This document shows positions 6,392 through 52,032 of a DNA stretch of 64,000 bases, one piece after another. A program made the translations under genes and the position numbers. The stretch lies in contig JAUWNJ010000010.1 in NCBI GenBank assembly GCA_030612725.1, forward strand, positions 32,837 to 96,836, written 5' to 3'. The notes under the pieces were generated by a model. That model did no database searches and had not been told where the DNA came from. It saw only the letters and a program-made list of their open reading frames with translations. Source of the stretch: Planctomycetales bacterium. Lineage in GTDB: Bacteria > Planctomycetota > Phycisphaerae > SM23-33. Position 1 is the stretch's first letter. The number at the start of each line of letters is the position of its first letter.

Positions 6392-6688
6392 ATGAACGTA
6401 TCGTTGACAAGCAAATTGGAAAAACTTGTAAAACAGAAGGTGAAATCCGGTCTGTACAATTCCGCCAGTGAGGTGATTCGGGAGAGTTTGCGCCTTTTGG
6501 AAGAGCGAGACAGGATTAACAAAATCCGCATCAGGGAACTTCGGAAAGAAGTTGCCGAAGGGATAGGGCAACTGAGGCGCGGCGAATTTACGGAAGTTAC
6601 GGACGATTCTCTGTCAAAGACGTTTGGCGAAATCAAGGCCCGAGGCCGTAAGAAACTGTCCGCCCGGAAGAAAAATCGCACCGCATGA
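6392..6688 (+). CDS. parD: Type II antitoxin, ParD/RHH family
   Basis: 98-aa protein (KLEKLVKQKVKSGLYNSASEVIRESLRLLEERD) with a ribbon-helix-helix antitoxin pattern. Its stop overlaps the downstream toxin start (ATGA). Confidence 0.75.
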   Translation: MNVSLTSKLEKLVKQKVKSGLYNSASEVIRESLRLLEERDRINKIRIRELRKEVAEGIGQLRRGEFTEVTDDSLSKTFGEIKARGRKKLSARKKNRTA

Positions 6689-6972
6689 CTCGCTATCGAA
6701 TCACAAAACAGGCCGAGGAGGACCTGGAGGCAATTTGGCTTTATATTGCCGAAGATAATCCTTCTGTTGCGGATCGAGTGCTGGATACGTTTCAGGAGAA
6801 GTTCCGCCTGTTGGGTGAACATCCACAAATGGGCAGAAGCCGGAAGGACCTCGGAGAAACCCTACGGAGCCTTCCTGTTGAGAAGTACGTAGTGTTCTAT
6901 CGCTACCGTGATGAATGCGTGGAGATCATTCACGTCATACATGGTGCGCGTGACATCCCGTCACTTTTGTGA
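6685..6972 (+). CDS. parE: Type II toxin, ParE/RelE family
   Basis: 95-aa protein with ITKQAEEDLEAIWLYIAEDNPSVADRV...VVFYRY...IIHVIHGARD, the ParE/RelE pattern, translationally coupled to parD. Confidence 0.75.
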   Translation: MTRYRITKQAEEDLEAIWLYIAEDNPSVADRVLDTFQEKFRLLGEHPQMGRSRKDLGETLRSLPVEKYVVFYRYRDECVEIIHVIHGARDIPSLL

Positions 6973-24301: not shown

Positions 24302-25117
24302 CTACATTACCGGCGGCGCGCCCCAGGTGATCGTATAGACCGTATTGAGCAGTACGCCGATGAAGAAATCCAGCGCAAGGATAGCCATGCAGGATTCGAC
24401 GAAACTTTCGGTGCATGCTCTTCCGACCCCTGCCGCTCCGGGCCGGCAACGAAAACCACGCCAACAGCATATCAGACTAATCACACCGGCGAAGAACAGG
24501 CTCTTGATAAGTCCGGTAACAATATCGAACATTTCCACCGTCCTGGCGGCGTTTTCCCAGAACTCGGCGGCATTGATACCGTAGAGTCCGACGCCGATGA
24601 GGTATCCGCCGAGGATTCCCGTCAGGTCCGCATAGAGCACGAGAATCGGCATCAGCAGCAGGCAGGCGAGGAATCTCGGCACTACCAGTACGCGGAGCGG
24701 GTCGGCCCCCATCGCTCGCAGCGCGTCTATCTGGTCGGTAACTCGCATGGTTCCCAGTTCGGCTGTCAGTCCGCCGCCGACGCGACCGGCCAGCATAATC
24801 GCCGCCAATACAGGACCCAACTCGCGTACTACCGAAAGGTTGACGATTGCGCCGAGTTTCGCCTCCAGACCGACTGCCTGGAATTGCAGTACGGATTGGG
24901 CGGCAAGGACCATCCCGACGAACGCGCCGGTGAACATTACTACCGGAACGCTCCGTGTACCGACCTCGTACATCTGCCGAAGCGTCAGGCGAATGTTGCG
25001 ACCGCTCAGCCCCGCCGACAGAATCCATTCGAACACTCGCCCGCAGAATCGACAGAAATCTCCCCACGCCACTATCAACGACAGACTCCGCGAACCAAGT
25101 TGTGCCAAAACATTCAC
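24302..25117 (-). CDS. mlaE: Mla-type ABC transporter permease
   Basis: Polytopic membrane protein with the MlaE/Ttg2B-family pattern (VRELGPVLAAIMLAGRVGGGLTAELGTMRVTDQIDALRAMG). Confidence 0.75.
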   Translation of the reverse strand: MNVLAQLGSRSLSLIVAWGDFCRFCGRVFEWILSAGLSGRNIRLTLRQMYEVGTRSVPVVMFTGAFVGMVLAAQSVLQFQAVGLEAKLGAIVNLSVVRELGPVLAAIMLAGRVGGGLTAELGTMRVTDQIDALRAMGADPLRVLVVPRFLACLLLMPILVLYADLTGILGGYLIGVGLYGINAAEFWENAARTVEMFDIVTGLIKSLFFAGVISLICCWRGFRCRPGAAGVGRACTESFVESCMAILALDFFIGVLLNTVYTITWGAPPVM

Positions 25118-26004
25118 GGTTCAATTCTTCCGATCTTACCGGGATAAAATATCTTGCGCCTGGTAACGAGAATTTCCGTCCGCGTTTTCTGCTGAACGAC
25201 GGCGTAGCCAAGGGCATTTTCAAGCCTGTATCGGGCAGAGTGATTGAGGTGCGGTCGAAGCGCAGTAGTCAGGCTGACATCGCACGGTCCGAATCGCCGG
25301 CGGTACTCGGCGAAGACCATATCGCGACAGTCCCACAACATCGGCGGAATACAAACCCGCCTGTTATCAACGTCGATAACGAACCGCCGCTCGTCCAGGA
25401 CCAGGCGGTTGAACGCCTCGGAAAGTCCGGCGGAAAAGTTTCCCTCGGTGAACGGCTTTCTCGGCAGGGGCGCGTAATCGATCCATGCGCCGGGCGCACA
25501 GGCGGCAAGACGAAAATCTCCGCTACGCCTGGTTGCGTCCCGGAGGATCGAGTCGATTTTTTCGAGCGACATATCGCACCCGTCGAGGAGAAATACCTTT
25601 TCGCGCGCCCGTGGTCGATATCGAGCCGGAGGAAAACCCGCCAAATCCGCCAACTTCATCGACCACGCCGCACGAGCGTTGTACCAGTAGGCCCAGCGAG
25701 ACTCGTCCGTCGGGTACATCTCCGGCGTGGCCGTCGGACCGGATACGGCCATCTTCTTCAATTGCGAATCCAGCCGGACGCGCACAGACGCGAAACCCGC
25801 CGGGATAAGACGACCTTTCTTATCGACGCCTTTGGAAAGAACGACTGACAGGTCGGAAACGTCCGAAGAAACCCCCACGCCGGTCAAGTCGAGACGAACC
25901 TCCGCAACGTCTGCTTCATCGACACAACCGGCCAGGAGCAACGCAAGTAGAAAGACGATTCCGGTTCTGCATGAGAAATAATCCATGGCAAAGATTGTAA
26001 TCAT
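25114..26004 (-). CDS. Hypothetical lipoprotein
   Basis: Signal peptide with lipobox-like LLAGC, 296 aa, with a 4-nt overlap onto mlaE. No confident family. Confidence 0.4.
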   Translation of the reverse strand: MITIFAMDYFSCRTGIVFLLALLLAGCVDEADVAEVRLDLTGVGVSSDVSDLSVVLSKGVDKKGRLIPAGFASVRVRLDSQLKKMAVSGPTATPEMYPTDESRWAYWYNARAAWSMKLADLAGFPPARYRPRAREKVFLLDGCDMSLEKIDSILRDATRRSGDFRLAACAPGAWIDYAPLPRKPFTEGNFSAGLSEAFNRLVLDERRFVIDVDNRRVCIPPMLWDCRDMVFAEYRRRFGPCDVSLTTALRPHLNHSARYRLENALGYAVVQQKTRTEILVTRRKIFYPGKIGRIEP

Positions 26005-26112
26005 CGGCCCGGTGGAACAACAACGATTATCTTCGACTTTCGGATTGGTCGCTCTGCGGTCTTGATTCGTCCGGCAGCGTTATTACAATACGCGATTCGA
26101 CAAAATGAATGG

Positions 26113-28770
26113 ATGACAGACATGAGCGAACTGCACAGAACTGTATTGTACGACCGGCATGTCGCCGGTGGTGGAAAAATCGTCGATTTCGCCGGATGGG
26201 AGATGCCGCTGCAATACGCCGGCGGGATCGTGGCTGAACACCTCGCCACGCGCAAAGGCGCAGGCCTGTTCGACGTCTCGCACATGGGGCGATTCATCTT
26301 CGGCGGCGAAGGCGCGACGCGATTTCTCCAGCACGTCCTGACCAACAACGCCGAGGCCCTGGAGACCGGGCAGGCGCAGTACACGATGATCCCCAACGCC
26401 GACGGCGGGGCAGTCGATGACGCGTACCTGTACCGCTTCGTCGAGGATGAATACCTCCTCGTCGTCAATGCCGCCAACCGACAAAAAGACTGGGACCATT
26501 TCTCCGAACACCTCGCCGAATTCGACGACGTGAAAATGACCGATGAGTCCGAAGAAATCGCAATGATCTCGCTCCAAGGCCCGCTGGCAGGGGCGATACT
26601 CTCCGGCGTTATTGATTCGGGAGCACTTCCAGAACCGACGCGGAACGAACTGGGAGCCGTCGTAATCAACGGCGTCGAGGTCCGTCTCGCCCGAACCGGA
26701 TACACGGGCGAACCGGTCTGCTTCGAACTGTTCGTCGAAAGCCAAGCCGCCGGGAAAATATGGGACCTGCTGATTAATCGCGGCGCAGAACCCGTCGGCC
26801 TCGGGGCGCGCGACACTCTTCGGCTGGAAGCAGCCCTGCCGCTCTACGGACACGAACTGGGACTCGAACCGGACGGAAAAGAAATTGCCGTATTCTCCTG
26901 CCCGTTGGCGCGATTCGCTGTGAGTTTCTCGCCGCTGAAGGGCGATTTTATCGGAAAAGACGCTCTGGCCAAACAGCATGAAGCCTTCATGAAAATCCTC
27001 TCCGAAGATTATTCGTTGATAGCGAACCTGCCGCGACGGATCGTTCCGGTTGCGGTGGTCGGTAAGGGTATCGCCCGTCCGCCGGCAGGGGCGTTCGTCG
27101 GCGACAAGCACGTCGGATTCGTTACCAGTGGAACGGTGGTTCCATACTGGCAGGTCGAGGGCGAAGGTCTGTCGAGCAGAATAACCGACCAAAAGGCGAT
27201 GCGGTCTATCTGCATGGTTATGCTCGACTGCGACCTGCGCGAGGGCGACCGGATTGAAATCGAAATTCGCGGCAAGCAGGTCGAAGCCGTTATCGTCCCG
27301 TTCCACCTCCGCAGCGAGGCTCCGCCTTACGCAAGGGCGATACTGCACGACCACGCATTGGCGATCCACGAAGACCGCACACGTCAGGCCGGCCCGACCA
27401 AGGCGCGCGACCTGCTTGAAAAGGCGATTGAAAACACCATCTGGCGACAGGCAGAGTGCATAAACCTCATCCCGTCCGAGCAGACGTTCTCGCCCATGGC
27501 CAGGATGCTGTCGATCATGGACCCCGCCTTCCGATACGCCGAGCACAAACCGCTCAAGGCCTTCTACGAAGCGAACGTCTTCTACTACCAGGGGACGGAT
27601 TTCATCGAGGCCGTTGAGACCTCGCTGGAAGCCGAATTGCGGAAATTCCTTGGCTGTGCGGAAGTCGAGACCCGCGCCGTCAGCGGGCAGATGGCGAACG
27701 CCGTCGTCTTCAGCGCGATGGTCGATTACATCAACCGGACCGACCGGAAAAGCCCGCCGAGAAGAATCGCAAGGGTGATGAACAATCACATCATCAAGGG
27801 CGGGCACCTCAGTTCCCAGCCGATGGGCGCGATGCGCGACTTCATCGCACACGACCCGAAAACGGAAAAACCGGCAATAACCAACTTCCCCGTCCTGCCC
27901 GAAAACCCGTATAAAATCGACGTGCCCGCCTGCCGGGAACTGCTGGAGCGATACAGACCCGAACTGATTATCTTCGGTAAGAGCGTCGTTCTGCACCCCG
28001 AACCGGTGGCTGAGATTCGGGCGTTCGCCGATGAGATGGGTATCGATACCGTAATCATGTACGACATGGCCCACGTGCTCGGACTCGTCGGCCCGCACTT
28101 CCAGGAACCTTTCGCCGACGGCGCCGACATCGTTACCGGCTCGACGCATAAGACATTCTTCGGTACGCAGCGGGGAATCGTCGCGTCCAACTACGCCGAG
28201 ACCGATGAGCGGTACAATCTCGCCGAGGCGATTCGTCGCAGGACGTTCCCCGGCTCGGTCAGCAATCATCATCTCGGAACGATGGTCGGGCTGCTGATGG
28301 CTACCTACGAGATGAACCATTTTAAGGATGAGTACCAGCCGAAGGTTATCGCCAACGCAAAGGCCTTCGCCGCTGCGCTGAAACGCTGCGGTATGGACGT
28401 AGCCGGTGATGCGGACGTCGGATATACGCAGACGCACCAGGTAGTTGTTAATGTCGGTTACAGCCGGGCCACCGAGATAGCGAGAAAACTTGAGGACAAC
28501 AATATAATCGTCAACTACCAGGCCGCACCAAATGAAGAAGGTTTCACCGCAGCCGGTGCGATTCGCATGGGCGTCTCGGAGATGACCAGGTTCGGAATGG
28601 GCGAGGGCGATTTTGAAACAGTTGCACAACTCATCGCCGATGTGGTAAATAACGACAAGCCGGTAAAGGCTGAAGTGAAATCGTTCAGGGGCGGATTCAC
28701 CGACCTGAAGTTCCGCTTCGGCGGCGAAGAATTTGACGGAATTATGGAAAAACTGCACGGGCTTGTATAG
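26113..28770 (+). CDS. gcvT: Glycine-cleavage T protein (aminomethyltransferase) fused to a C-terminal serine-hydroxymethyltransferase-like domain
   Basis: N-terminus YDRHVAGGGKIVDFAGWEMPLQYAGGIVAEHLATRKGAGLFDVSHMGRF matches GcvT. The C-terminal half carries SHMT-like motifs IPSEQTFSP (ENFTS), YYQGTDFIE (YYGGCE), VSGQMAN (HSGSQAN) and GSTHKTFFG (TTTHKT). An alternative start is at 26122. Confidence 0.7.
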   Translation: MTDMSELHRTVLYDRHVAGGGKIVDFAGWEMPLQYAGGIVAEHLATRKGAGLFDVSHMGRFIFGGEGATRFLQHVLTNNAEALETGQAQYTMIPNADGGAVDDAYLYRFVEDEYLLVVNAANRQKDWDHFSEHLAEFDDVKMTDESEEIAMISLQGPLAGAILSGVIDSGALPEPTRNELGAVVINGVEVRLARTGYTGEPVCFELFVESQAAGKIWDLLINRGAEPVGLGARDTLRLEAALPLYGHELGLEPDGKEIAVFSCPLARFAVSFSPLKGDFIGKDALAKQHEAFMKILSEDYSLIANLPRRIVPVAVVGKGIARPPAGAFVGDKHVGFVTSGTVVPYWQVEGEGLSSRITDQKAMRSICMVMLDCDLREGDRIEIEIRGKQVEAVIVPFHLRSEAPPYARAILHDHALAIHEDRTRQAGPTKARDLLEKAIENTIWRQAECINLIPSEQTFSPMARMLSIMDPAFRYAEHKPLKAFYEANVFYYQGTDFIEAVETSLEAELRKFLGCAEVETRAVSGQMANAVVFSAMVDYINRTDRKSPPRRIARVMNNHIIKGGHLSSQPMGAMRDFIAHDPKTEKPAITNFPVLPENPYKIDVPACRELLERYRPELIIFGKSVVLHPEPVAEIRAFADEMGIDTVIMYDMAHVLGLVGPHFQEPFADGADIVTGSTHKTFFGTQRGIVASNYAETDERYNLAEAIRRRTFPGSVSNHHLGTMVGLLMATYEMNHFKDEYQPKVIANAKAFAAALKRCGMDVAGDADVGYTQTHQVVVNVGYSRATEIARKLEDNNIIVNYQAAPNEEGFTAAGAIRMGVSEMTRFGMGEGDFETVAQLIADVVNNDKPVKAEVKSFRGGFTDLKFRFGGEEFDGIMEKLHGLV

Positions 28771-28774
28771 CAAA

Positions 28775-28925
28775 GATAGCAGAATTACAGGGATTTTTGT
28801 TTTTGCTGAAAAAAGAAGAAGAAAAAGGAGAAAGATAGCGGGATTATGGGGATTACTGGATTATAGGGATTTTCTTTTTTGTTTTTGTCCTCTAATCTCA
28901 AAATCCCTGTAATCCTGCTATTCTG
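28775..28925. repeat. Structured intergenic element: about 20-nt inverted repeat (agcagaattacagggatttt / aaaatccctgtaatcctgct) enclosing purine-rich tandem gggattat-like units
   Basis: Read directly from the sequence between the gcvT-SHMT stop and gcvH. Confidence 0.4.
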
Positions 28926-28970
28926 TTTCGGCGATGGCGACAAAACTTACACTTACAAGGAGAATCTTAC

Positions 28971-29360
28971 ATGGTTCCTGCTGAATTGCGATACGCAAAG
29001 AGTCACGAATGGGCGAAAATGGATGGCGGGACGGTAACAGTTGGTATAACCGCCTTCGCTGCTGAACAACTCGGCGACGTTGTCTTTCTTGAGTTGCCTG
29101 CCGTCGGCGAGAGCGTCGAGGCTGGGACACCCTTCGGCGTGGTCGAGTCGGTCAAGGCTGCGGTCGATTTAAATTCGCCCGTCAGCGGCGAGGTAATCGA
29201 GGTCAATGATGACCTGACCGAAGACATGGAACTGCTGGGCAAAGACTCCTACGGGTCAGCCTGGATGATAAAGGTAAAAACCGCCGGCGACGCCGATTTC
29301 CAAAGCCTCATGTCGGCTGACGAATACGAAAAATTCCTCGAAGCCGAAGAAAAGCATTAA
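28971..29360 (+). CDS. gcvH: Glycine-cleavage H protein (lipoyl carrier)
   Basis: 129 aa with ...ESVKAAVDLNSPVSGEV, the lipoyl-lysine motif. Confidence 0.85.
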   Translation: MVPAELRYAKSHEWAKMDGGTVTVGITAFAAEQLGDVVFLELPAVGESVEAGTPFGVVESVKAAVDLNSPVSGEVIEVNDDLTEDMELLGKDSYGSAWMIKVKTAGDADFQSLMSADEYEKFLEAEEKH

Positions 29361-29427
29361 GAAGTGGTAGCGACTCCAGCAGGCTGGTTCGCACCGTGAA
29401 CAACAACAAAAGAAGAAGGAGACCAAA

Positions 29428-30138
29428 ATGTCTAACAAGATGATGTTCACCGTGATTTTTGCCATGGCGGCAATATGTGCCGGTTGTAATTCTGAAAAAG
29501 CAGTTTGGAACGATGAGTTCACTGACCATAACCCACGTTGGGAATGGAATTACAATAAGGGAACGGCTTACAAACAGCTTACTACGATTGATGGCGTATC
29601 TGTTGTTGAGATTGGAATAACCGACCAATCCTCATCGTCAGGCTATTCTGATTGCTCGCTTCACGAGACAAAATATCAATATCATAATGGTGTATTTGAG
29701 GCGCGTCTCCGCTATGCCGGCGACCACAAATTCGGCACAATAGGATGGGGATTCTGGAACTACCAAGACAAACCAAGAGTTGAGTGTGCCTGGTTCCTTG
29801 GTTGTTCAACCGGAGGTAGTGCATCTGGTTTTCAGGCTATGGTTGTCAGTGATAGGGTTATAAAGTTCCAGAAGCATCTGCCTGAAATTGATATACAAAA
29901 ATGGCATATCTATCGAGTCGAACTTCTACCCACAGGCACCCGTTTCTTTGTTGACGGCGTTGAAGTTGCCGCTACTTCTAAGCGTCCCGGCAAACTACAG
30001 AGATCTGAGATATGGATAGATAACTATCGTCTTCAAGTGATAGACGGTAAGATATCGGCAGCGGGGCACCTGAACATACAGCAAGATCAGCGGATATATG
30101 TTGATTGGGTGCGGTACTATGAAGCCCGTAAAAAATAA
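29428..30138 (+). CDS. Lipoprotein with concanavalin-like/GH16-like fold (low-GC gene)
   Basis: Signal peptide plus lipobox (ICAGC). The gene is visibly AT-richer than its neighbours. Fold assignment is weak. Confidence 0.4.
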   Translation: MSNKMMFTVIFAMAAICAGCNSEKAVWNDEFTDHNPRWEWNYNKGTAYKQLTTIDGVSVVEIGITDQSSSSGYSDCSLHETKYQYHNGVFEARLRYAGDHKFGTIGWGFWNYQDKPRVECAWFLGCSTGGSASGFQAMVVSDRVIKFQKHLPEIDIQKWHIYRVELLPTGTRFFVDGVEVAATSKRPGKLQRSEIWIDNYRLQVIDGKISAAGHLNIQQDQRIYVDWVRYYEARKK

Positions 30139-30216
30139 ATACAGGGTTAAACAGGGACGATTTCCGATTTTCTCATTTGACTGGATTGAACTGGATTAAC
30201 CCCGGTCCCGATTGGG

Positions 30217-30267
30217 CTTTGCGAACTTTTGCCGCATCTGCCGCTCCCAATCAGATTCTGTCGCCTT
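30217..30267. repeat. 51-nt direct repeat, copy 1 (duplicate of the 3' end of the small ORF 32001..32186)
   Basis: cttTgcgaacttttgccgcatctgCcgctcccaatcagattctgtcgcctt matches 32009-32059 with 2 mismatches. Confidence 0.7.
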
Positions 30268-30417
30268 CAGCCGGTACGTCAAATCGTGGGTCGTAAAATT
30301 ATCTTGATTATTTTACGATTGTGTCGATAATAGTCCTGTTGTGAAACTGGGGTTATCTGGAGTTATCCAGCCTACTTGACTTTCTTCATCAAGCACCCAA
30401 CCATCCCATTTTATTCC

Positions 30418-31530
30418 CTAGCCTATCGAGCAGAAGCTAGTGGACCATTCGTTCCAGTGCTGGTTCGTTGGAGCCTGGCACATCTTTTCGATGAGAGCAG
30501 CGGGAAGAAACTCAAGGGGCCAGCAACGCGGTTTTCCACATCCGGCTTGGATAAGTCCGCTTTGGAGCATGTCCCAGACCATTTTCTTGAGTTGCGGGTT
30601 GCTCCAAGCCAGCTTGTACAACAACGAAACGATAAAGCACCCTATAGGACTGACTCCCGAAAGGCCAAAGTAGCTTGCGCTCACTTTGGGCCTGAATATT
30701 TCCCCCATTCCTGGCGGGTCAGGCGGCTTTGGCTTCCCGCCAAAGAACTCTGCCTCTGTGACTTCCCTGCCTCCTGCTCCATCGAGGACACAGTACTTGC
30801 TCTCATGCCTAGGCCTAGCCTCATGAAGCCAGATCGACTTCTCTGATATCCAGGTGCCAAGGTCCGCAACGCAAACCCAGTCCAGCATTTCACGTGGGTG
30901 CCGGACCTCCCCCAGGGCTTTGTCCAATCCTCTAAAAACGTTCTTTGCGGGGGTTGAACTCTCACTCTTCCAATGATGTGAATGGGCCAAGAGACCGTAT
31001 GAGATTCGAGAATGCAATTCGCGGTAGGGACTTCCGTTCATAAGACAATGCTGCTTGATCTCGCTGCATTTCGCTCTTGCCTCAGCGATATGCTTGGCGG
31101 TTAAGGTCAGCTTGCACTCGAACGCGGCCAGCACGCCCCCTGCCAGGTATCGCTTGCCCTCTCTCAGTTTCTCCGGGTAGCACGGATTCAGGATCACAAC
31201 ATCAACCTGAGGGCTTGAGTACCCATCGGGAAAGACGATACGCCCTTTCGTCTCGACGGGATACTCCGAGGGAAGCCACGCAGAAAGCAATTGCTGCCAA
31301 TTCCCTTCACTGTCATCACCCGCTGTCCCAGGATCCTCACGGACCGATGTCTGGATACGCTTATAGTGCGCATCCATCTCGGACGTGGCCTGTCGCATGA
31401 AGTGAGCTATATCGGAATCCGGCCGCCGGATGAACTTTGACACAAAGGCACTGCCTACGGCGATTTGCGGCGGCTCGTCTCGGTGTTCCGGTGGGGTGTC
31501 CATGCTTGGCATCCTTCCAGCATTATACAT
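30418..31530 (-). CDS. PD-(D/E)xK (restriction-endonuclease-like) nuclease-fold protein, uncharacterised
   Basis: PQVDVVILNP...LAAFECKLT gives a D...ExK arrangement on a beta-strand-like context. The MYNAG start at 31530 is preceded by ggagagg. Confidence 0.45.
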   Translation of the reverse strand: MYNAGRMPSMDTPPEHRDEPPQIAVGSAFVSKFIRRPDSDIAHFMRQATSEMDAHYKRIQTSVREDPGTAGDDSEGNWQQLLSAWLPSEYPVETKGRIVFPDGYSSPQVDVVILNPCYPEKLREGKRYLAGGVLAAFECKLTLTAKHIAEARAKCSEIKQHCLMNGSPYRELHSRISYGLLAHSHHWKSESSTPAKNVFRGLDKALGEVRHPREMLDWVCVADLGTWISEKSIWLHEARPRHESKYCVLDGAGGREVTEAEFFGGKPKPPDPPGMGEIFRPKVSASYFGLSGVSPIGCFIVSLLYKLAWSNPQLKKMVWDMLQSGLIQAGCGKPRCWPLEFLPAALIEKMCQAPTNQHWNEWSTSFCSIG

Positions 31531-31654
31531 GACCTCTCCCGTCCCCACAACCCCGACTCGTAACAACCCCACCGTCCCGGTTGTTCGGTTGTTTTCAAAT
31601 TAACCCAAACATTAGTGGGTAAGTTTAGGATTTCTCCTATCGTCTAGAACGTCA

Positions 31655-31683
31655 TTGACAATCTGCCACCCGCGTGAGATATT
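31655..31683 (+). promoter_or_regulatory. Sigma70-like promoter TTGACA-17-GATATT upstream of the small HNH gene
   Basis: ttgaca at 31655-31660, a 17-nt spacer, gatatt at 31678-31683; aaggag RBS at 31702-31707; ATG at 31714. Confidence 0.45.
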
Positions 31684-31713
31684 GTCGGTGGCTTTTAGGA
31701 AAGGAGCGTAACG

Positions 31714-31977
31714 ATGACCTATCCATTTATTGAGGCTGATGAGGTCTTAAAGTCGGCGGTATGGGCAAAAGGTAAGCCGATTCCAGATTACGATGCGGAC
31801 GTGTGGCGCCGGGATGTACGTGGGACAGCGATGAAGTACTCCGAGCATGGAAACACTGATTCTAAACACGGGTGGGAGATTGATCATATCATCCCGGTGG
31901 CTAAAGGTGGGCCCGACGATCTAGACAACTTACAGCCGCTACAGTGGCAAAATAATAGGACGAAGGGGGATTCCTAG
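31714..31977 (+). CDS. Small HNH endonuclease (87 aa)
   Basis: GWEIDHIIPVAKGGPDDLDNLQPLQWQNNRTKG is a classic HNH motif. Confidence 0.65.
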   Translation: MTYPFIEADEVLKSAVWAKGKPIPDYDADVWRRDVRGTAMKYSEHGNTDSKHGWEIDHIIPVAKGGPDDLDNLQPLQWQNNRTKGDS

Positions 31978-32000
31978 TTGGATTAAACCGGTTTGATACG

Positions 32001-32186
32001 TCAGGACACATTAGTTGACTTGGCGAACTTTTGCCGCATCTGTCGCTCCCAATCAGATTCTGTCGCCTTTAAGAAGTCTGAGAATAATGGAAACTCTGCC
32101 TTACTTTTCTCATATTCGGCAACGATACTTTCCTGAATGCGACGTTTCATCTTGACGCAATCAAATGTCTTCATTTTCGTCGCCAT
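32001..32186 (-). CDS. Small hypothetical protein (61 aa) whose 3' end is duplicated at the other cassette border
   Basis: ORF-track ORF. AT-rich. No family. Confidence 0.3.
   Translation of the reverse strand: MATKMKTFDCVKMKRRIQESIVAEYEKSKAEFPLFSDFLKATESDWERQMRQKFAKSTNVS
32009..32059. repeat. 51-nt direct repeat, copy 2 (forms the 3' end of the small ORF on the minus strand)
   Basis: Matches 30217-30267. Encodes ...KATESDWERQMRQKFAK on the minus strand in both copies. Confidence 0.7.
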
Positions 32187-32348
32187 ACACGCGAATCCTG
32201 CGCATTACATTCTCCCTGTCCCAAGGCTACAGGTATTTCGGGGACAAATCAATCCGCCACTGTTGTTCCGCTTGATTCTTGATTTGTCCGGCGAATCCTG
32301 ATATGTAGTGCTGCTTCGAGATTGCAGCAGAACGTACATGAGGAATAG

Positions 32349-33689
32349 TTGAAAATGCCATTTATCGCCAATACAGATGAGCAGCGTGAGCAGATGCTCA
32401 ACGAGTCGGGCATGAGCGCCGAGGACCTTTTCGCCGATATTCCCGCCGATTTGCGATGCGAGCGGCTGAAAATTGGACGCGGTTTGAGCGAGCAGGAAGT
32501 CCGTCGGCACATGGCGGCGCTGTCGGACAAGAACGCGTCGGGGCTTATCAGTTTTCTCGGCGGGGGGTTCTACGACCACTTCGTACCGGCGGCCGTCGAT
32601 GCAATGGCCTCCCGAAGCGAGTTTTACACCGCGTACACGCCGTATCAGCCTGAAGTCTCGCAGGGAACGCTCCAGGCGATTTATGAATATCAATCCGCGA
32701 TATGCCGGCTTACGGAAATGGAAGTCGCCAACGCCTCGCTCTACGACGGCGGAACGGCTGTCTATGAAGCCGTGATGATGGCGATGCGGATTACCCGGCG
32801 AAATCGCGTTATCGTCGATGAGACCGTCAACCCGGTCTATCGAAAGATGCTGCGGTCGTACACGACCAACCTCGGTATCGAGTTCGTCCAGACGTCCTGG
32901 CACGACGGCCTGGCCGACCGCGAGAAAATCGCGGCAGAATTGAATGACCAGACGGCTGCGGTTGTCGTTCAGAATCCGAACTTCTTTGGCTGTCTCGACG
33001 ATTTCGCCGACCTGGCCGATGCCGCCCACAAGCACGGCGCATTGTTGATTGTATCGTGTTATCCGATTTCGCTGGGCATGGTCCAGACGCCGGGGCAGAT
33101 GGGGGCCGACATAGTCGTCGGCGAGGGTCAGAGCCTGGGTCTGGCGTTGTCCTTCGGCGGTCCTTACCTGGGGTTCATGGCCACTCGCAAAAAATTCGTC
33201 CGCAAGATGCCCGGAAGGGTCGTCGGGCGCACTGTCGATAGCGAAGGGCGGGGCGGATTCGTCCTGACGCTCCAGACCCGCGAGCAGCACATCCGGCGCG
33301 AGAAGGCCATGTCGAACATCTGCACGAACGAGGGCTTGTGCGCCCTGACGGCGACGATTTACCTGAGCCTTCTCGGAAAGGAGGGTTTGCGTGAACTTGC
33401 CCAGACCTGCGCCGACAAGGCCAACTACGCACAGAAGCGCCTGCTGGAAATACCCGGCGTAACGACGCATTTCCCCAACCGCTGGTACTTCAATGAATTC
33501 GTCCTGAGGCTGCCGGTTGCGTCGGCCCAGAGGGTTATCCGCCGATTGCTGGAGCGGGGAATCTCGGCTGGTTTCCCGTTATCGAGATACTACGACGATA
33601 TGGAAAACTCGCTGCTGGTGGCAGTTACCGAAAAACGCACAAAAGAGCAGATCGACCTGCTGGCGCACGCACTGGAGGTGTCGCTGTGA
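32349..33689 (+). CDS. gcvPA: Glycine dehydrogenase (decarboxylating) subunit 1
   Basis: N-terminal P-protein pattern (FIANTDEQREQML...FLGGGFYDHFVPAAVD...YTPYQPEVSQGTLQAI). Confidence 0.85.
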   Translation: MKMPFIANTDEQREQMLNESGMSAEDLFADIPADLRCERLKIGRGLSEQEVRRHMAALSDKNASGLISFLGGGFYDHFVPAAVDAMASRSEFYTAYTPYQPEVSQGTLQAIYEYQSAICRLTEMEVANASLYDGGTAVYEAVMMAMRITRRNRVIVDETVNPVYRKMLRSYTTNLGIEFVQTSWHDGLADREKIAAELNDQTAAVVVQNPNFFGCLDDFADLADAAHKHGALLIVSCYPISLGMVQTPGQMGADIVVGEGQSLGLALSFGGPYLGFMATRKKFVRKMPGRVVGRTVDSEGRGGFVLTLQTREQHIRREKAMSNICTNEGLCALTATIYLSLLGKEGLRELAQTCADKANYAQKRLLEIPGVTTHFPNRWYFNEFVLRLPVASAQRVIRRLLERGISAGFPLSRYYDDMENSLLVAVTEKRTKEQIDLLAHALEVSL

Positions 33690-35134
33690 AACTCATTTTT
33701 GAAAAATCGGTTCCTGGTCGGCGTGCGTATCGGCCCGCCGATAACGACATTGACGCGCCGGCGCGAATCCCGAAGAATTTCCTGCGCGACCGGCCAGCCG
33801 ATCTTCCGGAACTGTCCGAACTGGACGTAGTGCGACACTTTACCGAACTGTCGAACAGGAACTTCGGCGTCGATACGGGCTTCTACCCGCTCGGCTCGTG
33901 CACAATGAAATACAACCCCAAGGTAACCGAGCGCATCAGCCACTATCCGGGGTTCGTGCACTTACATCCGCTGCTGCCGCAACTTCCCGGCGGGGAAATG
34001 CTCGTCCAGGGGGCGCTGGCTGTGTTGCACGACACTGACATGATGTTGCGCGAAATCTGCGGAATGGCCGCCTTTACAATGCAGCCTCTGGCAGGAGCAC
34101 ACGGCGAACTGACCGGTTCGATGATTATCGCGGCCTATCACGCAGACAAGGGCAACGACAAGACGACCATCCTTATCCCCGACAGCTCGCACGGGACCAA
34201 CCCGGCAAGCGCCGCCACCGCAGGATACGACGTGCAAACGGTCCCGTCCGACGATACCGGCGTGATGGACATTGACGCCCTGGCAGAAGTGATGAACGAC
34301 AAGGTCGCAGCCGTCATGCTCACCTGCCCCAATACACTTGGCCTGTTCAATCCGCGAATAAAAGAAATCTGCAAAATGGCCCACGATGTTGACGCACTGG
34401 TGTACTACGACGGAGCGAACCTCAACGCTCTGCTGGGACGATGCCGGCCCGGCGACATCGGATTCGACCTTGTGCACGTGAATTTGCACAAAACCTTCGC
34501 CACACCCCACGGCGGCGGCGGGCCTGGAGCAGGACCGGTCGGAGTCTGCGAAAAACTCATCCCATTCCTGCCAACCTCCGTCATCGCCGACAAACCAGAC
34601 GGGTCGTACTGGCTGGACTACGACAGACCAAAATCCATCGGGTATATCGCGCCGTTCTACGGAAACTTCGCCGTCATACTCAAAGCCTACATATATACCC
34701 TCATGCTGGGGACAGACGGGCTGGAGCGGGTCTCGGAAAACGCCGTGCTTAACGCCAATTACGTCAAAGAAAAACTCAAAGCCCATTTCGACCTGCCATT
34801 CGGACAGACCTGCAAACATGAGTTCGTTCTGTCGGCGTCGCGCCAGGCCAAAAACGGCGTCCGGGCGCTGGACATCGCCAAGGCCTTGATTGACCGGGGT
34901 TTCCACCCGCCGACGGTTTATTTCCCGTTAATCGTCCACGAAGCGATGATGATCGAGCCGACAGAAACCGAAAGCAAAGAGACGCTCGACACCTTCATCG
35001 CCGCGATGATCGAGATCGCCGAACTCGCCCAAAGCAACCCGGAAGAATTAACCGGATGCCCGCGAACGACGCCGGTCGGAAGACTCGACGAAACACTCGC
35101 AGCACGAAAACCAGATTTGGCGTCTTTGGAGTGA
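33686..35134 (+). CDS. gcvPB: Glycine dehydrogenase (decarboxylating) subunit 2
   Basis: GSCTMKYNPKV ... PLAGAHGELTG ... DSSHGTNPASA, the PLP-dependent P-protein C-terminal subunit. Overlaps the gcvPA stop by 4 nt. Confidence 0.85.
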   Translation: MKLIFEKSVPGRRAYRPADNDIDAPARIPKNFLRDRPADLPELSELDVVRHFTELSNRNFGVDTGFYPLGSCTMKYNPKVTERISHYPGFVHLHPLLPQLPGGEMLVQGALAVLHDTDMMLREICGMAAFTMQPLAGAHGELTGSMIIAAYHADKGNDKTTILIPDSSHGTNPASAATAGYDVQTVPSDDTGVMDIDALAEVMNDKVAAVMLTCPNTLGLFNPRIKEICKMAHDVDALVYYDGANLNALLGRCRPGDIGFDLVHVNLHKTFATPHGGGGPGAGPVGVCEKLIPFLPTSVIADKPDGSYWLDYDRPKSIGYIAPFYGNFAVILKAYIYTLMLGTDGLERVSENAVLNANYVKEKLKAHFDLPFGQTCKHEFVLSASRQAKNGVRALDIAKALIDRGFHPPTVYFPLIVHEAMMIEPTETESKETLDTFIAAMIEIAELAQSNPEELTGCPRTTPVGRLDETLAARKPDLASLE

Positions 35135-50964: not shown

Positions 50965-52032
50965 ATGACAAAGAACGTTTGCGAGAAATGCATATACTGC
51001 AATGCTCCTGTGCAAGGTGGTTCGCAAGGGGACCACGTGATACCGGCAGCGCTTGGAAAGTTCCGAAACGCGACTAACTTCAAACGCATTTGCGTAAAGT
51101 GCAATTCCGAGATTGGCCGCTGTGAGGAACAACTACTAAGGTGCGGTCCGGGAGTGCTGTTCAGGCGATTGGTCATACCGGCAACCCACCGGTCACGCGG
51201 TCAACCCAGAGCTTCCATGACGGGCGCTGGGGGAGTCCCTCCTCCCGAGGTGTGGGCGCACTTCCCAGACCACAAAGAGGCCGTCACTCTAACCGAGTCA
51301 GGCCGAAACGTTGTCGGTTTCGATCACCTGGTTGTTTATGATGATAAGGATGAAGGTCATGTTGTACGTCTGAATCCGAACATGTCGCCGGAGGCACTTC
51401 GGGCGGCCGTCAAAAGGCTTGGCCTCAAGAAGATAAAGGTGACCACCTCGCACTTCGCCAAGAAAAACGAACACACATCTGATCTCTATCTGAAGATATT
51501 TTCACAGGCTTGGCCGGAAGCCCAATATGAGCAAAAACCAGATCTAGATCCGGGAGTGCATCCTGTTCCTGTCGAGTTTAAATTTGTTGCCACCGACCTT
51601 TACTTCCGTGCGATTGCGAAGATTGCTTTCCATTACTACCTGACACAGTCGATGAGGTCGCTAGGGAATGAAGACTATTTTCGAGAAATCAGGGACTTCA
51701 TCAGATACGGTGGCGGAAAACTTGCTGTGGACAAGTTCTTTATTGGCTCAAACATATTCAGTTTCCCGCAGTTCCTAAGTAACATGGTCCCCAGTTGGTG
51801 GCATCATATTCTTGCTACACTGGAGCGCGACGGAACCGTTTTCGCTATGGTCTGTCTCTTCTACGGCCCCGAGTGCAAAGGCGAACGGTACACGTTGGAA
51901 CTAGGAAAGATCCCGGGGCGTATTGTTTTGCCGAAGTCTTGCTGGGCACACACTTATGACTACTTCCGTCCCGAAGACATCGGCAAGTACGCTGGCAAAG
52001 TGCATCCGGTTTCTATCACCGCGCTGCGGTGA
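50965..52032 (+). CDS. HNH-nuclease-domain protein with large uncharacterised C-terminal domain
   Basis: N-terminal CEKCIYCNAPVQGGSQGDHVIPAALGKF...CVKCNSEIGRCE is an HNH/Zn motif. 355 aa. Lower GC than the flanks. Confidence 0.5.
   Translation: MTKNVCEKCIYCNAPVQGGSQGDHVIPAALGKFRNATNFKRICVKCNSEIGRCEEQLLRCGPGVLFRRLVIPATHRSRGQPRASMTGAGGVPPPEVWAHFPDHKEAVTLTESGRNVVGFDHLVVYDDKDEGHVVRLNPNMSPEALRAAVKRLGLKKIKVTTSHFAKKNEHTSDLYLKIFSQAWPEAQYEQKPDLDPGVHPVPVEFKFVATDLYFRAIAKIAFHYYLTQSMRSLGNEDYFREIRDFIRYGGGKLAVDKFFIGSNIFSFPQFLSNMVPSWWHHILATLERDGTVFAMVCLFYGPECKGERYTLELGKIPGRIVLPKSCWAHTYDYFRPEDIGKYAGKVHPVSITALR

Follow-up and report, generated by a model that had tools for sequence, protein, structure and literature searches.

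Defence-gene hotspots between conserved core genes have been described in E. coli, Pseudomonas and Vibrio. Here, we describe the gap between the glycine-cleavage genes gcvH and gcvPA in the genome of an uncultured member of the Phycisphaerae (Planctomycetales bacterium, assembly GCA_030612725.1, contig JAUWNJ010000010.1, positions 32,837 to 96,836; this whole stretch of 64,000 nucleotides (nt) is called the window), in which two nuclease genes, one for a DUF6602-family protein and one for a small HNH protein, are enclosed by a 51-nt direct repeat. The gap resembles the described hotspots in its fixed borders (gcvH or a GH16-like gene on one side and gcvPA on the other), in its variable content of restriction-modification, nuclease, ATPase and toxin-antitoxin genes, and in having no resident recombinase. 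It differs from them in that it lies inside the glycine-cleavage operon, is small (1.5-5 kb), bears the scars of a module made of a PIN-domain gene and a small open reading frame (ORF), and shows a ~15-20-nt motif at its junctions.

The larger nuclease has two described counterparts. NucC is an endonuclease activated by cyclic triadenylate (cA3) in the cyclic oligonucleotide-based anti-phage signalling system (CBASS) and in type III CRISPR (clustered regularly interspaced short palindromic repeats) systems (PDB 6P7P, 6Q1H, 7ZGV). Its active site reads IDx30EAK (Asp73, Glu104, Lys106), and its cA3 pocket and gate loop include Arg53, Tyr81, Thr226, His136 and Tyr141, among which Tyr81 stacks on the adenine and Arg53 binds the cA3 phosphates (bioRxiv 10.1101/694703). 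Damona is a single-gene anti-phage cassette from the chromosomal integron of V. cholerae, which carries a DUF6602 domain and has secondary matches to the Cas PD_DExK and CBASS small endonucleases (Darracq et al., bioRxiv 10.1101/2024.07.02.601686).

A variable gap inside the glycine-cleavage operon

We consider it reasonably probable that the gcvH-gcvPA gap is a hotspot where accessory genes, mostly of the nuclease or defence type, are gained, swapped and eroded, and that the window holds a mosaic built piecemeal by recombination. This reading follows from the separate borders and histories of the two nuclease genes and from the nature of the repeat, whose copies belong to two copies of the small ORF. 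It departs from a sequence-only reading of the same stretch, which had proposed one discrete two-nuclease cassette, inserted site-specifically into the 3' end of the small ORF and bounded by the repeat.

Among the relatives, four gene contents of the gap were found, the window included. The window has the GH16-like gene, a truncated A-type small ORF, an 80-nt piece, the DUF6602 gene, the HNH gene and a B-type small ORF (the two allele types are described below). L093 and L094, two assemblies of the closest relative (~92% nt identity) that have neither the small ORF nor the repeat, contain the GH16-like gene, a ~40-nt remnant of an aminotransferase 3' end, the 80-nt piece and an AAA_14/DUF4143 ATPase gene. 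In L005-L007, the gap is filled by a methyltransferase, an MvaI/BcnI-type enzyme, a degenerate HNH gene, a degenerate small ORF, repeats resembling miniature inverted-repeat transposable elements (MITEs), the 80-nt piece and an aminotransferase gene, and in L004 by a gene for a 188-amino-acid (aa) unknown protein, a MITE-like repeat, the small ORF, the PIN gene and the aminotransferase gene. No relative was found with an empty site, where an intact small ORF and one 51-mer would lie between the GH16-like gene and gcvPA; the relatives hold other gene contents instead. The whole cassette with its 51-mer borders was not found elsewhere either; its parts occur separately.

The homology between the window and L093 resumes exactly at position 30268, the inner edge of repeat copy 1, ends at 30347 and restarts at 32265, where L004 and L005 homology also resumes. 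The 80-nt piece delimited in this way has 93.6% identity to L093/L094, in which it immediately precedes the AAA ATPase gene, and it is also present in L005, downstream of the aminotransferase gene. Since the closest relative has this piece, the sequence just inside copy 1 is backbone and not cargo, which does not support the proposed site-specific insertion bounded by the repeats. We also considered the 80-nt piece as the promoter of a small-ORF operon; this suits L005 and the window, but the piece precedes the ATPase gene in L093/L094.

The repeat itself is as described in the sequence-only reading, with two mismatches (49/51 identical), and copy 1 lies where that reading had placed it (30217-30267), while copy 2 occupies 32019-32069 rather than 32009-32059, a position 10 nt too low. 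Its 47-nt core occurs at two sites only in the 64-kb window, where shuffled sequences gave an expectation of 0. A Logan contig from SRR12623518 matches the window with 100% identity. Between the copies lie the 361-aa minus-strand nuclease ORF and the 87-aa plus-strand HNH ORF, and copy 2 falls inside the 3' part of the 61-aa minus-strand small ORF (Table 1). The repeat-bounded segment does lie between gcvH and gcvPA as claimed, but not directly, as the 236-aa GH16-like gene separates gcvH from copy 1. It is also richer in AT than the window, though modestly and not as visibly as had been stated (GC content 0.522 versus 0.566), and the lowest GC content belongs to the GH16-like gene (0.447), the small ORF (0.43) and the spacers (0.43-0.45 together with the GH16-like gene), with the DUF6602 gene at 0.551. 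Thus, the low-GC zone begins well outside the repeat. The GH16-like gene is part of this low-GC accessory zone; it is 90% identical at the nt level to that of L093 and is absent from L004 and L005.

The annotated or tested genes cover roughly 16.6-62 kb of the window and are housekeeping genes there; no integrase or transposase was found among them. The segment has no terminal inverted repeats at its bounds and no transposase domain, as an insertion sequence or transposon would have, and the window lacks a methyltransferase in the stretch from gcvH to gcvPA. The claim that the locus has neither a methyltransferase nor a recombinase therefore stands for the annotated or tested genes. It was also correct that the segment matches neither a classical insertion sequence nor a type II restriction-modification system, the cognate methyltransferase of the latter being absent. 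The view of the region as horizontally acquired accessory DNA is supported as well.

The two nuclease genes

The minus-strand nuclease had been described as a 370-aa protein with a PD-(D/E)xK arrangement. The fold assignment holds, with D101 and E129-C-K131 invariant; as to the length, the gene caller and the homologue alignment favour the start at 31503 and hence 361 aa. This 361-aa version is the public record, and exact-sequence look-ups of the 384-aa and 370-aa versions returned no match. Pfam DUF6602 (PF20247) matches residues 77-174 of the 384-aa ORF with 76.4 bits against a gathering cut-off of 27 (E 1.8e-21), and the domain is present in all 120 homologues among the matches listed. Matches were also obtained in PADLOC, to the models of the CRISPR-associated PD_DExK protein and of the CBASS effector NucC (E 8e-19 to 6e-10); PHROGs and NCBIfam gave no match to the protein. 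Its homologues number more than 1,700; they are about 320 aa long and ~40% identical to it over 91% of its length. Those found in the genome scan come from Poribacteria, Proteobacteria, Firmicutes, Bacteroidota, Cyanobacteria and Actinobacteria, among others, and homologues are also present on plasmids and a few viral contigs.

A relationship with NucC is supported by both sequence and fold. In the DUF6602 family, the EDPGTAGDxGExNW motif is invariant together with D101 and E129-C-K131 (D101, E129 and K131 in 54 family members), and the pattern PGTxGDxxExxW is common to this family and NucC. V100-D101 and E129-C-K131 align to NucC positions 73, 104 and 106, so that the window protein has VDx27ECK where NucC has IDx30EAK, and the restriction-endonuclease fold is accompanied by the embellishments specific to NucC. 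In the cA3 pocket, the equivalent of Tyr81 (Y109) is invariant across the family. In contrast, the residue at the Arg53 position varies (Glu in the window protein), the Thr226 region is unalignable, and the gate loop is ~6 residues shorter than that of NucC, with no His136 equivalent. The DUF6602 protein also differs from NucC in having about 120-140 extra C-terminal residues and in its neighbours: beside it in the window lie gcv genes, the HNH gene and the GH16-like gene, with no gene for a cGAS/DncV-like nucleotidyltransferase (CD-NTase) or Cas10.

The survey of its surroundings covered 80 DUF6602 loci from genomes other than the window's own. No neighbour family was common to more than 9 of them, and neither this HNH nor the small ORF was found within 8 kb of the gene at any of the 80 (tblastn, E<=1). 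The sampled neighbours include methyltransferase/helicase pairs in Poribacteria, an Eco47II restriction-modification pair in Lachnospiraceae, a transposase and housekeeping genes, and DUF6602 genes often adjoin restriction-modification genes or a transposase. At five poribacterial loci (L013, L022, L024, L030 and L032), the DUF6602 gene lies between a ~1,015-aa N6_N4 methyltransferase and a ResIII-helicase pair of ~396 aa and ~996 aa, an arrangement that suggests a recurrent association of DUF6602 with one restriction-like system there.

The borders of the gene are seen in L003, whose homologue shares 84% aa identity with the window protein. The nt identity of 88% is confined to 30399-31524, the gene and ~20 nt on each side, which is roughly the extent of the transferable DUF6602 unit, and the flanks on both sides are unrelated to the window. 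Upstream of DUF6602, L003 carries another gene, which looks like a RhuM-type C-terminus. The L002 homologue (60% identity) is found in yet another context, and neither L002 nor L003 has the HNH gene.

From these sequence features, the DUF6602 protein is predicted to be a NucC-type Mg-dependent DNA endonuclease with an extra C-terminal region, and by analogy it would most plausibly act as a single-gene anti-phage or abortive-infection effector like Damona. The comparison with Damona, which is by domain and description only, shows the same DUF6602 domain, the same secondary matches and a single gene on mobile or accessory DNA; Damona differs in being an attC-flanked integron cassette, and no integron is present at the window locus.

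The second gene, an 87-aa HNH protein behind a TTGACA-17-GATATT promoter, was confirmed in both respects. The protein matches Pfam HNH (PF01844) with 35.1 bits against a gathering cut-off of 21.4 and contains the motif HGWEIDHIIP...NLQPL..NN, and the promoter-like site is strong and the gene's own. The profile matches therefore bear out the assignment of both cargo proteins to nucleases of the PD-(D/E)xK and HNH folds. A block at 31657-32256, consisting of the HNH promoter and gene, the B-type small ORF and 70 nt upstream of it, is 90% identical in L005-L007, where it adjoins the MvaI/BcnI-type restriction enzyme and an N6_N4 methyltransferase and where there is no DUF6602 gene. L004 has the B-type tail and lacks the HNH gene, and similar small HNH proteins stand alone in unrelated plasmid contexts. 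Because the HNH recurs with the small ORF in L005-L007 and never lies beside DUF6602 in the surveyed loci, we conclude that it is linked to the small ORF, and its sequence marks it as a common small stand-alone nuclease with a candidate activity.

Two further observations concern the HNH genes. In L005-L007, Trp codons have become stops (TGG to TAG or TGA) in both the small ORF (L005 7262-7447) and the HNH gene (L005 7470-7791), and the neighbouring restriction-modification genes are called full-length; the HNH/small-ORF block is thus decaying in these genomes. A second, unrelated HNH-domain protein (355 aa, with an N-terminal HNH_5 domain) is encoded ~19 kb downstream in the window (50965-52032).

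The distribution of the two genes bears directly on whether they form a unit. A cooperating two-gene defence or modification-dependent restriction system would account for two adjacent, divergent genes with a 210-nt spacer, both for nucleases and with no methyltransferase. We regard such a system as highly improbable, as the HNH was not found within 8 kb of DUF6602 at any of the 80 surveyed loci (tblastn, E<=1), is missing from L002 and L003 and occurs in L005-L007 without a DUF6602 gene, and the intergenic spacer is common to neither partner's homologous loci; the absence of co-occurrence largely refutes it. The same distribution, in which DUF6602 is alone in L003 and the HNH and small ORF travel with other cargo in L005-L007, does not agree with one discrete two-nuclease cassette. 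In the piecemeal mosaic that we favour, the two nucleases would work independently.

The small ORF, the repeat and the junctions

The small ORF is a real conserved gene with six homologues of 45-62 aa (67-96% identity), and it has no significant match in any profile library. In L004, L008 and L010, it is preceded and overlapped by the PIN-domain gene (158 aa in L004/L008), which identifies the small ORF as the downstream partner of the PIN protein; the two may form a toxin-antitoxin-like pair, with the small ORF as the putative antitoxin judging from this gene order. The window no longer has such a pair, as its PIN gene is reduced to 19 nt. Alignment with L004 and L008 places the deletion of the PIN body at a TATG microhomology. 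In L005-L007 and L009, the gene was lost at another junction, between AAT(G/T)CGCAG repeats at the PIN start and end (L005 7233-7244). A deletion common to the window and L005 was considered and rejected, since the alignment shows independent junctions, and the different junctions imply that PIN was lost at least twice. Genomes that are only 81-83% identical in their gcv genes reach 92-95% identity in the small-ORF DNA, which indicates recent horizontal movement of the module.

The small ORF has two C-terminal alleles, the A-type ...KFAKPNRD(R/Q)G (L008, L009) and the B-type ...KFAK(P/S)(I/T)NVS (window, L004), which part sharply just past the conserved core. On the minus strand, repeat copy 1 runs on as KFAKPNRDRG followed by a stop codon, the same C-terminus as in the intact homologue P0123. 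Intact A-type small ORFs are carried by L009 and L008; L009 matches copy 1 and its 3' flank (30162-30267, 106 nt) with 100% identity, and L008 matches 30141-30267 with 86% identity. Copy 1 is therefore a truncated A-type small ORF and copy 2 lies in an intact B-type one. The earlier suggestion that copy 1 is a displaced remnant of the small ORF's 3' end thus proved sound, and the 51-nt repeat exists because the conserved 3' regions of two small-ORF alleles flank newer DNA. Two copies of the 51-mer are present in the window only; L005-L007 have a single copy. A scan of Joint Genome Institute (JGI) metagenomes with the degenerate 51-mer core found two contigs only, both with a distant xseA context, and yielded no further alleles or empty sites, and the same scan of a viral collection gave no match.

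A promoter-like site in the 80-nt piece, TCGACA-18-GATAAT, faces the truncated small ORF (window 30196-30282, minus strand). From a TTG start, this ORF could still yield a 27-aa peptide (MTYRLKATESDWERQMRQKFAKPNRDRG).

The sharp edges of the repeat, together with the displaced natural 3' end (PNRDRG and stop) at its far side and an intact ORF given a substitute tail, recall integrative elements that target the 3' ends of genes, as does a recurring motif at the module junctions. According to this alternative, the 51-nt core, B-type tail, HNH gene, DUF6602 gene and 80-nt piece were carried on a circle, which recombined with the core of a resident A-type small ORF, by a recombinase acting in trans or by RecA on the 51 nt of homology, and left the repeats as attL and attR. 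We consider it unlikely that the locus is a discrete element of this kind. Direct repeats are present at both ends, but no integrase or recombinase was found among the annotated or tested genes of the window, and the unit was seen at no second location: L003 has DUF6602 alone, and L005-L007 have the HNH and small ORF with other cargo and a single 51-mer. Moreover, the 80 nt inside copy 1 are common to the closest relative, which has neither the small ORF nor the cassette, and no empty site was found.

The sharp divergence of the A and B alleles right past the conserved core can also be read as the trace of homing, in which the HNH would be a free-standing homing endonuclease that cuts the 3' end of the A-type small ORF, and repair from a B-type donor copied in the HNH and DUF6602 genes and left the repeat as a repair scar. 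The window and L005-L007 show tight linkage of the HNH to the B-type tail, and the states of a homing cycle are found beside this tail: an intact gene in the window, a degenerate one with a stop in L005-L007 and none in L004. However, homing normally replaces sequence and does not duplicate it, similar small HNH proteins occur in unrelated plasmid contexts without such a partner, and only three independent loci are informative. Homing is, in our view, quite improbable.

The junctions of the modules carry a motif of ~15-20 nt with the core GTCCCGGTT, which occurs in the forms ACCGTCCCGGTTTAATCCGG and ...GGTTGTT..., as an inverted form and as a palindromic hybrid ATTAAACCGGTTTAAT. Besides the three copies in the window (Table 1), it was found in L003 (1401-1420), L004 (4651-4670, 5363-5382), L005 (6514-6524, 6633-6652, 7162-7181) and L008 (1355-1374, 2104-2123), and in L004, L005 and L008 it flanks the PIN/small-ORF module on both sides. 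The exact 15-mer occurs once in the window and the 8-nt core is at background level outside the hotspot, so the motif is not a genome-wide repeat. Its role could be that of a recombination or protein-binding site. We also tried to interpret it as a target-site duplication, but the comparison of L004 and L005 shows two adjacent copies already in the uninterrupted state. A broader alternative would treat the gap modules as cassettes swapped by a site-directed process without an element-encoded recombinase, either through the GTCCCGGTT motif, in the manner of Xer-dependent dif modules, or by HNH homing on the small-ORF 3' end with the repeat as its scar; we judge this to be distinctly unlikely.

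Several points weigh against the piecemeal mosaic that we prefer. A sharp-edged 51-nt repeat around foreign DNA is also expected from site-specific or Campbell-type integration, and the break in homology to the closest relative falls directly on the inner edge of copy 1 (30267|30268) and could be the trace of a precise junction. In fact, Campbell-type or site-specific insertion via the 51-nt core, or homing driven by the HNH, would leave the same final structure. In five genomes, many module borders carry the GTCCCGGTT motif, a hint of a site-directed process beyond plain homologous recombination. Furthermore, no intermediate or empty-site genome was found among the relatives, which are a handful of metagenome-assembled genomes, and the putative defence function of the nucleases comes from family resemblance.

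The mosaic would comprise at least five independently inherited pieces, namely the A-type small-ORF 3' fragment, the 80-nt piece, the DUF6602 gene, the HNH gene and the B-type small ORF with its PIN gene deleted. Most probably, one copy of the small ORF arrived on DNA that recombined beside or within a resident copy, through ordinary homologous or short-homology recombination, and later deletions would have removed both PIN genes and most of one small ORF.

Table 1 Features of the gcvH-gcvPA gap, with positions numbered from the first letter of the window.
Feature	Position	Strand	Remarks
GH16-like lipoprotein gene, 236 aa	29428..30138	+	weak Glyco_hydro_16 Pfam match, E 2e-4
A-type small-ORF tail (…PNRDRG, stop codon 30196-30198) and 3' flank	30141..30216	-	ends in a junction motif copy, 30142-30161
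Direct repeat copy 1	30217..30267	-	codons ~40-56 of the truncated second small ORF
80-nt piece with palindrome CGTAAAAT-N10-ATTTTACG	30268..30347		promoter-like hexamers on both strands: 30327->30298 (-), 30304-30331 (+)
DUF6602-family NucC-like PD-(D/E)xK nuclease gene, 361 aa	30418..31503	-	in-frame upstream starts up to 31572
Junction motif ACCGTCCCGGTTGTT	31566..31585		spacer between the two nuclease genes; same 15-mer past the L003 DUF6602 stop codon
Stand-alone 87-aa HNH gene (31714-31977) and promoter-like site (31655-31683)	31655..31977	+	Pfam HNH, E 1.5e-8
Palindromic junction-motif variant (GGATTAAACCGGTTTGAT)	31978..31997		between the convergent stops of the HNH gene and the small ORF
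Intact 61-aa small ORF, B-type tail (…STNVS, stop)	32001..32186	-	six homologues; contains repeat copy 2
PIN/small-ORF module upstream region	32187..32256	-	only the first 19 nt of PIN kept (32187-32205)
Conserved gcvPA upstream spacer	32265..32348	+	right border of the variable region in all relatives; L093, L004 and L005 homology restarts

Some other features of the operon and its relatives were recorded. A single 902-aa ORF (window 26062-28770) joins the aminomethyltransferase GcvT to a serine hydroxymethyltransferase-like domain, and the fusion is kept in L001/L005 (881-882 aa). The AT-rich gcvT-gcvH spacer contains a 146-nt element (28776-28921) with 22-nt terminal inverted repeats (ATAGCAG[A/G]ATTACAGGGATTTT), a second copy of which is found upstream of gcvPA in L005 (5053-5166); the element has no Rfam match and is either a MITE-like insertion or an unrecognised regulatory element. 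Over 25000-34000, Rfam detected no RNA family and no glycine riboswitch. In the window, gcvPA and gcvPB overlap with nothing between them, and in relatives extra ORFs of 103 aa and 187 aa without a Pfam match lie between these genes (L004 1433-1744, L005 3061-3624, L006 5800-6363). Finally, the hotspot of the relatives contains ~270-nt palindromic MITE-like repeats with the ends CTTAGCCACGGGCGGCAGCCCGTGG and other hairpin-rich short repeats (L004 5371-5632; L005 about 6650-6920).

Significance of the locus

The genes at this locus are of known kinds, a DUF6602/NucC-like nuclease, which by its resemblance is probably Damona-like, and a stand-alone HNH; the modestly interesting parts are the hotspot inside the glycine-cleavage operon and the junction motif, which would matter more if it proved to be a recombination site. 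For annotation, the locus advises caution, because foreign genes can be flanked by a long direct repeat that is left over from duplicated toxin-antitoxin-like modules and is not an att site. The DUF6602 family is widespread but biochemically uncharacterised, and the window gene adds a planctomycete example of a NucC-like nuclease; such 'orphan NucC' enzymes without a linked cyclase raise the question of how their activity is switched on. For the organism, our reading means that a housekeeping operon for glycine cleavage in an uncultured member of the Phycisphaerae would host a small accessory-gene hotspot with fast turnover.

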